Assembly (NCBI GenBank): GCA_964291215.2
Contig: OZ219791.1
Span: 2,112,001 to 2,176,000 of the forward strand
Length of the DNA stretch: 64,000 nucleotides
Source of the DNA: Alphaproteobacteria bacterium
Lineage (GTDB): Bacteria; Pseudomonadota; Alphaproteobacteria; MPNO01; UBA830
Direction of reading: 5' to 3'
Under the pieces are notes generated by a model. That model did no database searches and was not told where the DNA came from. It saw nothing but the letters and a program-made list of their open reading frames with translations. Of the stretch, positions 3,482 through 10,256 are shown piece by piece (within the stretch, counting starts at the first letter, position 1; each line of letters opens with the position of its first letter). The position numbers and the translations under genes are program-made.

Positions 3482-4300
3482 ATGACCCAAGATATTTCCC
3501 GGACCGGCGCCGCCGGCGACGACACGCTGACGGGCGGGTGCGCCAGGTTAACTGGCAGGATGTCGCCGGGTGAAAGTCCCGGCAGGAAGAGAGGCTAACC
3601 ACCACTTCCGCCGTGAACCATGCGTCGGACATCGCGAGGCGAAGCGTTGGGGAGCGGCAGGCGCGGGCCGGGCTATTGGGCCAGGAGATGTAGTGAAACC
3701 GGAGTGCCGAGGTTGTCCACAAGGCCGAAGGCAACACCCTGCGGGCCGAGATGGTGAGGCGAGCGGGGGGCTCCGCGGGGTCTGAGAACCATGGCACACG
3801 CTGAAAGTCTACCGGGACGTGGGAGGTCTTTCAAACGCCCCACTGTCGTAGAGCAGCCGCAGAGAAAAGGGACTATTCCGTAACCCGATGATGAATGATT
3901 TGAAGAAGTCAGATTCGGCCATGGTACCGTCGAAGGCGGCGAACAAGGGTTCTTCGGAGCCTGCGGAGTTGCTGGAGGGAAGGCCAATGCAGTTGGCCAA
4001 GGCCCGCGCCGCGCGCAGAAGCGGGAAAGCGGGTTACAGGTGGTCGAGCGCATACGACAGATCAGCGTCTTGTCGTCAGGACCTGAGGGAGGAGCCAGAT
4101 GCGAACAGCGCCCGTCCGGATCTGTGCGGGGGACCGGGGAAACCCGGTTCCCTACCGCGATAACTGCAAGCTCGGTAGCCGATGTGGACTTTCTCGCCAT
4201 GAATCCCGGCAGTTCGGACGATGACACGCTGGAGGCCCGTGATCTCGCCCCTGCGGCAGCCGGACAACAACATCACCGCGGGCGGCGGCGTGGTTCATGA
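3482..4300 (+). pseudogene. RTX/hemolysin-type Ca-binding repeat ORF remnant interrupted by a group II intron
   Basis: RBS GGGGAG then ATG 3482. Exon 1 MTQDISRTGAAGDDTLTG-G joins in frame to TASSVADVDFLAMNPGSSDDDTLEA after intron removal. Confidence 0.6.
3538..4161 (+). mobile_element. Group II intron, ORF-less (IEP internally deleted), class E-like
   Basis: 5' GTGCG; 3' domains V/VI GAGCCAGATGCG...GTCCGGATCTGTGCGGGGG...CCCTACCGCGAT; IEP N-terminal stub MMNDLKKSDSAMVP; collinear with the copy at 25350-26999. Confidence 0.9.
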
Positions 4301-4560
4301 TTTGCCGCAAGGTGTCGAGGACGCGGTTGGCGCCGCCCCGGCATCCGACCTCCGCGCAATCGCCACGCCGTCTGATCGCAGAATGTGTTACACATCGAGC
4401 CCTCCGATGCCTCTCTCACGCCTCTGTCCGAGCCCCGCGCGACATTCCTCTCTTCTAACCCAATGTCCCGCCGAGGCTCGAGCAATATGCCTTTTGCTCG
4501 AGACCTGTCTAGCTGCGTTCTGGTTGTCCTATCCCTGTATTGCTATCTAGGAGCAACACG

Positions 4561-5256
4561 ATGGTCGATCGCCTCATCAGGAAATGCGACTTTGGTATAG
4601 AAGCGGAATTTGCCAAGTCTGCCTTCAATCTCCAGCGCGCTGACTCCGATCTGCATACCACGGTCGTCTCTGCTTTCGCCCCTTTCTGCCGGATTCGTGC
4701 TGACGATATCCGGATTGAGACTGACACGTTGCCTCTCAGCAATGCCAATGTCGTCTATGACCTAGCTGGCTTGGGGGGGTTCGCTCGACTCAATCTCGAC
4801 AAGGCCTTCATTGTATTTTTCAATCCTCATGTCGGTGATGCCACATCCATTACCTCTTTGTCGGAAACCTGCTTGGAGGCAGTTGGGGCCTTCTTGTCAG
4901 CTGTTGAATCCGTAATCCCTGACTGTGCATACGGATCTTTTCAGGTACAATTCATGTGTCACTACGAGCTTATCGACTCGTCCCCAGCGGATCATATTCG
5001 TCAATACGTGTCTCCCCTACAGGACGATACCAATCGGGTCATAGGAAGTGCTGTCACCTATCACCTGGGACCTAAGGGCCCGCAGACCGACGCCTCCATA
5101 GTGCTGGATTTATCCGGTGAATATTCAGATTGTGTTTTCGCAAGAATATCGATTACCTTTGATGCGTCAGGAATATCCTTGGAGGAAATGTTGGGATCTG
5201 TATTTCAACACTGCCGTCGTCTTCTTGCTCTCGTAGGATTGGAATCCAACGAATGA
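4561..5256 (+). CDS. Uncharacterised alpha/beta protein (loosely TIGR04255-like), first gene of a 3-gene operon
   Basis: RBS AGGAG then ATG 4561; intact 231 aa; ATGA overlap with the next gene; visibly lower GC than the backbone. Confidence 0.75.
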   Translation: MVDRLIRKCDFGIEAEFAKSAFNLQRADSDLHTTVVSAFAPFCRIRADDIRIETDTLPLSNANVVYDLAGLGGFARLNLDKAFIVFFNPHVGDATSITSLSETCLEAVGAFLSAVESVIPDCAYGSFQVQFMCHYELIDSSPADHIRQYVSPLQDDTNRVIGSAVTYHLGPKGPQTDASIVLDLSGEYSDCVFARISITFDASGISLEEMLGSVFQHCRRLLALVGLESNE

Positions 5257-6065
5257 TGAGAGATTTTTCTTCGTTCTACCAGGCGAACCCCCAACGATCC
5301 GGTGCGAGACGGTCTATCCCGATCTCGCGTGACCGACATCGTTACCCAGACATATTCGTATCCAATACAAACGTCTCGGACAATTTGCCCAGGAATTGGG
5401 ATTTTTTCTTTGAACACCTTGCACCTGTTTATCGCAAAGGGCCTTCACTTTATTACTATTACGAAAGACCTGAGATTCGCCAACAAGCGCCAAGTGAGAA
5501 TTTGTCCCAGGCACTGAGGGGAGAGGCTCTCACGGTCAATTTGACTAACTTGAGAGAACTGGCAGACGTTTTCACGCTGCGGCAACGTCTTGTGGTTGGC
5601 GGTTTCACAGTTCCGGTTGATCTGGTTTCGAGACAGGTTGCTTCTTGTACGCAGGGCCCGGCACGATCTGTCATGGAGCGCCCAGTCGGCGCCACTACTC
5701 TCCCAGTAGTGGTATTGGAGAAGGCTAAAATGCTCCTTGGGGAGAATAACGTTCAAGAGGCTGTTTGCGTCCTCCGATCGGGAGTTGAGCAGTTTCCGGA
5801 TGATTTGAGAATAGCTGACCTACTGCGGATCATTTCGCCCCAAGGCAGGCCTAGGAAGGTCAACATGGTTATCAAGAGTTGCCAGGAGGAAACGTCCTGG
5901 ATCAAAACGCATGGTAGAAAATACAGAGGCAAGTGGATCGCATTAGATGGTAGTGAATTAGTTTCTTTCTCCGATACGCTCAGGCAGTTGCTGGAGAACG
6001 TAGATCGCAAATCGGAAGAAGAGGGAATGCCGTTGATTCAGTATGTAGAGTCGGGGGCTGGCTAG
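5253..6065 (+). CDS. Protein with TPR-like helical hairpin and C-terminal DUF5678-like domain
   Basis: Helical pair LEKAKMLLGENNVQEAVCVLRSGVEQFPDD; WIKTHGRKYRGKWIALDGSELVSFSDTLRQLL resembles the DUF5678 Y.GKWVA motif. Confidence 0.75.
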   Translation: MMRDFSSFYQANPQRSGARRSIPISRDRHRYPDIFVSNTNVSDNLPRNWDFFFEHLAPVYRKGPSLYYYYERPEIRQQAPSENLSQALRGEALTVNLTNLRELADVFTLRQRLVVGGFTVPVDLVSRQVASCTQGPARSVMERPVGATTLPVVVLEKAKMLLGENNVQEAVCVLRSGVEQFPDDLRIADLLRIISPQGRPRKVNMVIKSCQEETSWIKTHGRKYRGKWIALDGSELVSFSDTLRQLLENVDRKSEEEGMPLIQYVESGAG

Positions 6066-6067
6066 GT

Positions 6068-6505
6068 ATGCTGGAGCTGGATGGCGAGCCATTTGTATGT
6101 GGTGTATCCGGGTACTTTGAGGAAGACCCGACGTTAGCCTCAGGGCAAACGTCAGTTTACGTGAGCGTACTACTTCATGGAGACCGGGATATTCGAACCT
6201 TGGCCCGAGTCGATCCGGCCACCCCGTGGGTGGTCCTTAACTCGGAGATCAACGAACAAATAGGTCTCAAAGGAAGTTCGGAGACAGTGACCCTGCACAC
6301 CGTGGCAGGAGTTAAGGGGGGCAGCCTGGAAAGATGTCGGATTACCCTTGTGGCTGAGCGGGGGTGTGGTCTGGAGGTGGATGCAACGGTGTTTGTTTGC
6401 GATGACTGGACGCGAGGCAATTTCTTGGGTTACTCGGGACTGCTGTCCCGAATTCGGTTTGCGTTGGACCCGCAGGATCTCAAGTTTTATTTCGGTCTTG
6501 CTTGA
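6068..6505 (+). CDS. Retropepsin-like (clan AA aspartyl protease fold) protein
   Basis: 145 aa; LARVDPATPWVVL at the usual DTG position; NFLGYSGLLSRIRFALDP..FYFG C-terminus typical of single-domain clan AA proteins. Confidence 0.7.
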   Translation: MLELDGEPFVCGVSGYFEEDPTLASGQTSVYVSVLLHGDRDIRTLARVDPATPWVVLNSEINEQIGLKGSSETVTLHTVAGVKGGSLERCRITLVAERGCGLEVDATVFVCDDWTRGNFLGYSGLLSRIRFALDPQDLKFYFGLA

Positions 6506-6654
6506 TGGAAGTGCCGGGAGGGTGGGGGCTCCGGCTACCGGAGGTCGGTCCAACGCAGGGGCCGCGCGGTTACCCCTGTTGTGACGCGAGGTTTTGGTGG
6601 TTATCTCCAGCACGCGGTGCGCCGGTCTCCATGGGCGCATGACGCAGGATCGAA

Positions 6655-9470: not shown

Positions 9471-10256
9471 TCAGAGCTCGGCGATTGTCGTTCGCGGAAA
9501 GTCCGGCTTGATCGAATCGGTCGAAAGAAGCGACCGGCGTCGACGCCGGAGAGCGGCGTCTGAAATGTGTCCCATGATGAACGTGTCGAGATCCGCTCCC
9601 GGATCAAGACGGTCGCGCGCGAAGGCAAGCATTTCGGTTTGCGTCATGTGCCCGAAGTTCCGGCCTTCGGCCTTGATTTCGGAAAGTGCCACCGGATTGC
9701 CGCTGACATTCACGCAGCCGACGGCCGCCGTGTAGACGTGGATGCAGGACAGTTCCTCGCCGGTCTCGCATATTTCGACATGGGCATCGTTGAGCCGGTC
9801 GAAGCTGTAGGTCGGCTCGGTCTCGTGCATGCGCGCAAGCTGGACCTCGTCCAGCCACAGGACGTAGGTCGAAACGATGGTTCCCGGAGATGGGCAGAAA
9901 GTCGCGGGAATCGAACCGTAGGACGCCAGCTGCGCGGCATAGACGGTGTCGAAGCCGTGGAATCTGGCGTGCTGCACCGGTATTTCGGCGTCCTTGCCGG
10001 AAGCGGCATACTTCCGGGCGATCTGCTCGTGGGACTGGTTCGATCCGGCGCCGAGAACGGGTACACGCCCGGTCCGATCGAAATCATGGTCTTCCAGGGG
10101 ATGCGCGCCCCCCGCGCGAAAGAGGTACGAACGTCCCGGCAGTGGAAACGGATAGGATTTGGCGTACGTCGTTGTCTTGCCGAACGCCGGACTTGATGGC
10201 GGGGTAGGCAGGGATTCATCAGTCACGGAAGGCTGCGCACTGATACCGTCATTCAT
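9471..10256 (-). CDS. Conserved hypothetical protein (possibly GGCT-like fold)
   Basis: 261 aa globular ORF with host-like codon usage; PVLGAGSN and YGSIPAT motifs. Confidence 0.75.
   Translation of the reverse strand: MNDGISAQPSVTDESLPTPPSSPAFGKTTTYAKSYPFPLPGRSYLFRAGGAHPLEDHDFDRTGRVPVLGAGSNQSHEQIARKYAASGKDAEIPVQHARFHGFDTVYAAQLASYGSIPATFCPSPGTIVSTYVLWLDEVQLARMHETEPTYSFDRLNDAHVEICETGEELSCIHVYTAAVGCVNVSGNPVALSEIKAEGRNFGHMTQTEMLAFARDRLDPGADLDTFIMGHISDAALRRRRRSLLSTDSIKPDFPRTTIAEL

Follow-up and report, generated by a model that had tools for sequence, protein, structure and literature searches.

A low-GC cassette of an unnamed, predicted TBP-like protein and a DUF5678-retropepsin pair: a possible toxin-antitoxin-type module with a guarded antitoxin tail

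Introduction

What keeps three small genes intact and in step amid the debris of mobile elements, and what do they do together? The question is posed by a trio of open reading frames in a stretch of 64,000 nucleotides of alphaproteobacterial DNA, the whole of which is referred to here as the window. From the sequence alone, the initial annotation took the trio for a protease-gated toxin-antitoxin or anti-phage module, built of a possible sensor or chaperone (gene 1), a TPR-like/DUF5678-like protein (gene 2) and a protein with the layout of a clan AA protease (gene 3), and put its intactness down to selection, addiction or recent arrival.

What sets off type II toxin-antitoxin systems has long been an open question, with answers so far in a few cases such as the SecB-type TAC systems. 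In these, according to the accessible text of bioRxiv 10.1101/2024.02.24.581848, a SecB-like chaperone stabilises the antitoxin via a disordered C-terminal ChAD; once the ChAD is removed the pair no longer depends on the chaperone, for which a phage protein competes.

Results

The three genes (Table 1) are, as first described, tightly coupled, intact and of lower GC content than their host: 51.1% for 4561-6505 as against 64.1% for the genome, with 0 of 3164 non-overlapping genome tiles of the same length equally low. They are flanked by a TrwC fragment, by pieces of ISAzo13 and Mutator-family transposases and by an ORF-less group II intron remnant. Promoter and terminator scans of the locus gave results at chance level. 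Public contigs from three runs of one study (one of these runs might itself have supplied the window's sequence) agree with the trio over most of its length, showing 0, 1 and 1 differences; they cover 4136-6406, 4204-6292 and 4204-6085, and two of them span the D-P-A codons of gene 3, so this motif is not an assembly error.

Some features of the surroundings lie outside the module. The intron remnant sits within a glycine-aspartate repeat remnant, and the joint expected of its empty site (3537/4162) is present in contigs. Intron-related sequence recurs at 71 sites in the genome, some 50 of them with both ends and mostly 1.4-1.8 kb long, a large intron expansion. The right edge of the decayed region holds an intact 261-aa ORF (window 9471-10256, minus strand) with a weak gamma-glutamyl cyclotransferase-like match (E 0.1).

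Table 1. Features of the trio and its context, in window positions
Feature	Position	Strand	Basis
Gene 1 ribosome-binding site AGGAG	4549..4553	+	sequence
Gene 1, 231 aa; unnamed family, predicted two-repeat TBP-like alpha/beta saddle; proposed chaperone/guard of gene 2 tail	4561..5256	+	ORF; AGGAG at 4549-4553
Gene 2, 270 aa	5253..6065	+	ORF; ATGA overlap with gene 1 at 5253-5256
Gene 2 N-terminal tail, residues 1-148, hypervariable	5253..5696	+	present almost only with gene 1
Gene 2 core: helical hairpin, linker, DUF5678 (5916-6050); proposed antitoxin/inhibitor of gene 3	5697..6065	+	Pfam, alignment
Gene 3, 145 aa; retropepsin-fold protein by model, D-P-A 6212-6220, F-L-G psi-loop motif 6422-6430; proposed effector	6068..6505	+	ORF; 2-nt gap after gene 2
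Context, outside module: ORF-less group II intron remnant	3538..4161	+	Rfam RF02005 E 2.5e-29, RF00029 weak

Comparison of eight locus pairs gave dN/dS values of 0.15-0.32 for gene 1, 0.18-0.36 for the core of gene 2 and 0.10-0.31 for gene 3, all three being under purifying selection, and of 0.52-0.94 for the gene 2 tail, whose reading frame is nonetheless open (in the L015/L019 pair the boundary of the tail had been placed wrongly, which leaves the range as it is). Locus L002, in the MAG of another alphaproteobacterium, matches over exactly the stretch 4540-6526, where its DNA is 78-83% identical, and in two short pieces further upstream; this same-site copy implies that the cassette has long been resident here. 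Together with the dN/dS values, this copy shows that the trio's intactness reflects long-term selection and not, as was also first proposed, recent arrival.

The genes are nevertheless patchily distributed: a gene 1 profile found 0 matches in 60 related genomes, among which 4 belong to the same genus, and the neighbours differ from genome to genome, the trio genes being horizontally spread. Gene 1 is rare among the genomes sampled: with the seed genome counted in each time, the six group samples gave 3/401, 7/401, 3/201, 1/251, 4/330 and 3/321. Viral contigs yielded no relative of gene 1 (single-protein query) or of gene 3 (alignment query). Eighty of 101 neighbouring ORFs from 16 loci were read: those with names are mostly housekeeping or transposase genes, with few toxin-antitoxin-like ones. 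The loci looked at do not lie in defence islands, and the anti-phage half of the original proposal draws no support from the neighbours; we consider an anti-phage role doubtful.

Genes 2 and 3 together make up a two-gene cassette of DUF5678 (PF18929) and retropepsin, for which no published function was found in the literature searched. The DUF5678 assignment, at gene 2 residues 222-266, exceeds the Pfam cut-off (32.2 against 23.2 bits, E 9.7e-8); the TPR-like character ascribed to the helical hairpin is weak (best E 0.015). W216, W228 and A230 are invariant in the core over 56 aligned homologues. The idea that DUF5678 is a HicB-like domain was discarded, hhalign giving a probability of 0.9% against eight HicB-type pieces.

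Scans with a gene 3 alignment provided 59 loci in GTDB genomes and, from metagenomes, the best 80 of 165; with the window's own locus and four reached via gene 1 they make 144 loci, carrying 154 protease matches. A gene 2 homologue lies directly upstream in 146 of the 154, and 6 of the other 8 are near a contig end. These 146 pair rows, which include near-identical metagenome copies, frameshift repeat rows (L059, L060, L149) and L017 from the unpublished genome G463, have gene 1 upstream in 64 cases and lack it in 57, the remaining 25 having too little upstream DNA. The genes thus co-occur widely, in GTDB genomes and metagenomes, but the trio can be taken apart: the gene 2-3 pair often stands alone, and it is the pair that is the conserved core. 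Relative to the plain cassette, the trio adds gene 1, the 148-residue tail and a degenerate motif in gene 3.

The pair has traits of type II toxin-antitoxin systems, in being made of two small coupled genes, the proposed antitoxin first, and in being sporadic and duplicated; tandem arrays of up to three diverged pairs are found at L026, L042, L047 and L049. L043 was also counted among the loci with such arrays. In Thermoanaerobaculia many pair-only loci keep to a single position behind galT-galK, which is not how a roaming selfish element behaves; several of the tandem arrays lie directly behind these two genes. On balance we lean, if slightly, towards a toxic/antidote pair. PADLOC v2.0 gave 0 matches at E<=1 for the three proteins, none of which is named by NCBIfam or PHROGs either, so the module has, as supposed, no existing name in these collections; a distant retropepsin (L089) weakly matches the PADLOC candidate PDC-M08B (E 9e-4).

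Gene 1 proved not to be confined to this pair. Profile searches of six group samples and ten genomes, not seeded by the protease, gave 24 further gene 1 loci, in 22 of which it precedes a tail-extended partner. These partners are of five kinds: DUF5678-retropepsin (5 loci, one of them, L182, from the unpublished G1357); an Xre/MbcA antitoxin (5, with RES seen in 3 and the contig ending in 2); a small antitoxin with PIN (4); an MNT-like gene (3, with HEPN seen in 2); and an unnamed pair whose last gene is ART-like by eye (5). The last two loci, one from G1357, are disrupted. Pfam confirms RES (L063, L064), Xre_MbcA_ParS_C (L063, L080, weakly L064), PIN (L083, L085, L088) and, weakly, HEPN (L091), the latter locus also matching PADLOC HEPN_IX (E 3e-6); the labels of L187, L188, L183, L184, L086 and L090, and of the ART-like pair, were given by eye or from our own profiles and are not library-confirmed. 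Some of the gene 1 proteins at the heads of other pairs are close relatives (L083, E 8e-74; L091, E 1e-65; L085, E 5e-40). The second gene at these loci is longer than what we take to be the norm for its family, and its recognisable part is C-terminal. A gene 1 tree of 50 of the 54 rows, without L064, L158, L164 and L180, which were short or could not be found, requires 8 partner changes, the least possible being 4; several of its deep branches are long and weak. Because alignments of gene 1 diverged too much to be used on metagenomes, that scan was run with gene 3, which biases it towards the protease pair. With toxin-antitoxin families of such different kinds behind it, gene 1 is probably a dedicated accessory of toxin-antitoxin-like pairs, and its suggested role as chaperone or sensor gains independent support.

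A second trio with a gene 1-family member is present in the same genome as the window (L062, G000:C2:2385392-2388979, minus strand), and comprises a 235-aa gene, a tail-extended 222-aa gene and a small unnamed gene, ART-like by eye, with a TrwC-like fragment nearby. Trios of this type, whose pair is without a library name, are also seen at L065, L078, L079 and L082; their third gene has no Pfam, PADLOC or PDB sequence match.

The presence of gene 1 goes with that of the tail on gene 2. In rows with gene 1, an open frame of at least 71 codons precedes the gene 2 core in 64/64 cases and one of at least 80 codons in 62/64, as against 4/57 with at least 80 in rows without it; the gene 1 stop codon lies 58-154 codons before the core in 63 of the 64. 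Exceptions are L051, with gene 1 and a gap of 34 codons, and L055, where there is a tail of 91 residues and gene 1 was not detected. On the protease tree, built from 93 dereplicated rows without L017, the presence of gene 1 requires 5 changes, 2 of them forced by well-supported branches; the counts are thus not independent, and inside the protease family the link rests on few independent events. The tails are rich in P, S, T and G (32%, compared with 19% in the cores) and variable, 47 of them falling into 27 unlinked BLAST groups; that of the window is aromatic-rich and, on the disorder scale used, not clearly disorder-biased.

At one locus (L004, 4422-5192) gene 1 is in three pieces and genes 2 and 3 are intact, with tail and D-P-A motif; either the guard gene has been lost naturally or the assembly is wrong here.

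This arrangement is close to a mirror image of TAC. In the accessible descriptions of TAC systems (M. tuberculosis HigBAC, E. coli HigBAC, MqsRAC, CmdTAC) the third gene is tied to several unrelated toxin-antitoxin pairs, as here, and the antitoxin has an added, highly variable tail that pairs lacking the third gene do not have. The differences are that the third gene of our trio shows no SecB match in Pfam or NCBIfam and has a predicted TBP-like fold; that the accessory gene comes first, not last, the order being accessory, tailed partner, effector; and that the variable tail is N-terminal, the C-terminus of gene 2 being DUF5678, with no C-terminal ChAD. Tail position and gene order place the trio outside TAC proper; it would work like TAC if our reading holds. 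From the mirrored pattern (gene order, N-terminal tail, exchangeable pairs, tail-less lone pairs) we infer that gene 1 guards the tail, and the gene 1 relatives in front of RES, PIN and HEPN pairs with tail-extended antitoxins point to the trio as likely a new chaperone-guarded toxin-antitoxin module.

By analogy with SecB-type TAC, gene 1 would bind and guard the variable N-terminal tail of gene 2, which would otherwise destabilise the antitoxin, and the gene 2 core would hold gene 3 in check. A competing ligand, such as a phage protein or a misfolded protein, or loss of expression, might then free the tail, upon which gene 2 would be removed and gene 3 would dimerise and act. The roles of the DUF5678 protein as antitoxin and of the retropepsin as effector are assigned by positional equivalence. 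That gene 1 acts through tail binding seems, by this analogy, somewhat the better bet; for the complete three-part cassette of toxin-antitoxin type, with gene 1 guarding the tail of gene 2 and gene 2 restraining gene 3, we would put the chances a little short of even. The toxin-antitoxin side of the original proposal is thereby upheld in part.

An AlphaFold2 model of gene 3 based on a 38-sequence alignment has a pLDDT of 89.7, and Foldseek placed it nearest to 5c9f, Rickettsia APRc (E 3.7e-5, TM 0.63), with retroviral proteases next; on this model gene 3 has a retropepsin fold. The clan AA layout noted earlier therefore stands as to fold, but its hallmark is absent, the motif at the catalytic position being D49-P50-A51, not D-T/S-G. 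Among the 38 aligned homologues, one 82-aa fragment being left out, 27 have D-P-A-T and 11 D-T-G-A; the hydrophobic-hydrophobic-Gly psi-loop motif is kept as F119-L120-G121, with G121 invariant. On the protease tree the D-P-A-T genes and the D-T-A variants share a single supported branch, which is nested within D-T-G genes and contains both alpha- and gammaproteobacterial MAGs, so that the replacement of D-T-G by D-P-A is, on these sequences, a clade-wide change; every one of the 13 D-P-A-T rows that could be tested has gene 1. The motif that marks such enzymes is Asp-Thr/Ser-Gly, whose Thr makes the fireman's grip, as stated in the accessible part of PMC11313796. With D-P-A, ordinary proteolysis is doubtful in this lineage; as an effector, gene 3 would be atypical, weak or non-catalytic, and we rather doubt that the D-P-A enzyme cuts proteins. 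With APRc/ApRick of Rickettsia conorii (5c9f) it has in common the fold, the aspartate at the catalytic position and the hydrophobic-hydrophobic-Gly motif; it differs in having D-P-A instead of D-T/S-G, in sequence (17% identity), in that no signal or membrane segment is seen, and in being encoded behind a DUF5678 partner.

A protein of this kind could also belong to a non-toxic unit of regulated proteolysis or scaffolding, gene 2 being its adaptor or inhibitor and gene 3, in our lineage, a pseudo-protease kept for binding. Such a unit would agree with the maintenance of D-P-A-T in most homologues under purifying selection, with the housekeeping neighbours and with the fixed site in Thermoanaerobaculia; but Asp49 is invariant in 38/38 homologues, the gene 1 family fronts bona fide toxin families, and tandem duplication with divergence fits conflict systems, and we regard it as unlikely, though the best placed of the alternatives to a restrained toxin.

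Gene 1 belongs to a family of 178 relatives among 50%-identity representatives (E<=0.001) that has no name in Pfam, NCBIfam, PADLOC or PHROGs, 33 relatives having been checked too; an Atlas feature search returned unnamed clusters only. Its AF2 model (pLDDT 86.1) is a two-repeat alpha/beta saddle, for which Foldseek found TBP and AdoMetDC matches at TM 0.3-0.37 and VIA a best Z of 8.1 (rmsd 3.9, 134 aligned). Matches to TBP, AdoMetDC and McsB being at fold level only, we describe it as a predicted TBP-like duplicated fold. None of 106 family members matched SecB in Pfam or NCBIfam, and SecB is not among the fold matches listed, which are TBP/AdoMetDC-like. A Tic22 match in 1 of the 106 (E 0.004) was put down to chance.

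A TBP-like saddle at once suggests a nucleic-acid-binding regulator, which would autoregulate the operon through its promoter or mRNA, with the tail of gene 2 as co-repressor arm or degron. The best structural neighbours do include TBP and rolling-circle Rep proteins, gene 1 comes first in the operon, and Pfam recognises no DNA-binding domain in gene 2. The similarity is, however, in a range that the tool calls a common arrangement (TM ~0.33, Z 7-8), the nearly invariant residues of gene 1 (H134, S185, G162, G170, D183, D201) are not basic, and gene 1 also precedes Xre/MbcA-type antitoxins, which carry their own HTH. A regulator is accordingly improbable, slightly more so than the non-toxic unit.

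Least probable is that the protease is the trigger, cutting the tail in the manner of ImmA/RmrA-type proteases and so setting free gene 1, which would then be the active component, toxic or signalling: a long variable tail beside a protease is a plausible substrate, and protease-type antitoxins exist (the accessible part of PMC10440598), but 17 of the 24 independently found gene 1 loci have a partner other than a protease pair, and 57 pair rows are without gene 1.

Discussion

A cassette guarded at its antitoxin tail by gene 1 is thus the reading that we prefer for the trio. No description of such a module was found in the literature searched, although subscription papers, or preprint supplements such as the one that defines PDC-M08, could alter this. 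Under aspartyl or aspartic protease, the accessible parts of PMC2701414, PMC3632139, PMC6393860, PMC7159879, PMC10440598, PMC13069673 and bioRxiv 10.1101/2024.01.29.577857 contain nothing relevant. The new part of the trio is gene 1, with its lack of a family name. It would be a bolder step to see in gene 1 the founder of a second, non-SecB class of toxin-antitoxin guard, a TBP-like saddle able to capture any type II pair through a grafted N-terminal tail and serving that pair as phage or stress sensor, and in the DUF5678-retropepsin pair the first toxin-antitoxin family with an aspartic protease as toxin, here with a non-canonical D-P-A site; we think this combination unlikely, if conceivable.

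Were it true, an unrelated guard would serve at least five types of toxin-antitoxin pair by way of a removable tail, and the logic of chaperone addiction would have evolved twice. The trio also offers a first testable role for DUF5678 and for the widespread stand-alone bacterial retropepsins, and gene 3 is a natural D-P-A active-site variant under purifying selection.

A comparable layout, judged by eye, recurs in trios of the TIGR04255 family (L092, L093, L095, L100): a front gene of about 250 aa, a tail-extended second gene and a toxin-like third. Their front gene has no detected homology to gene 1: the TIGR04255 HMM matched 0 of 106 gene 1 members at E<=0.05, and hhalign gave a probability of 0.3% for the two families, a value from a thin profile (3-sequence alignment) that leaves remote homology open. 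TIGR04255 is not named in the literature searched, and Azaca, considered as a possible match for these trios, was set aside, PADLOC giving no match. One of them lies in the same genome as the window (L093, G000:C2:3443888-3447637, minus strand) and, like those at L092, L095 and L100, consists of a TIGR04255 gene, a tail-extended HTH gene and a gene that is PemK/MazF-like by eye.
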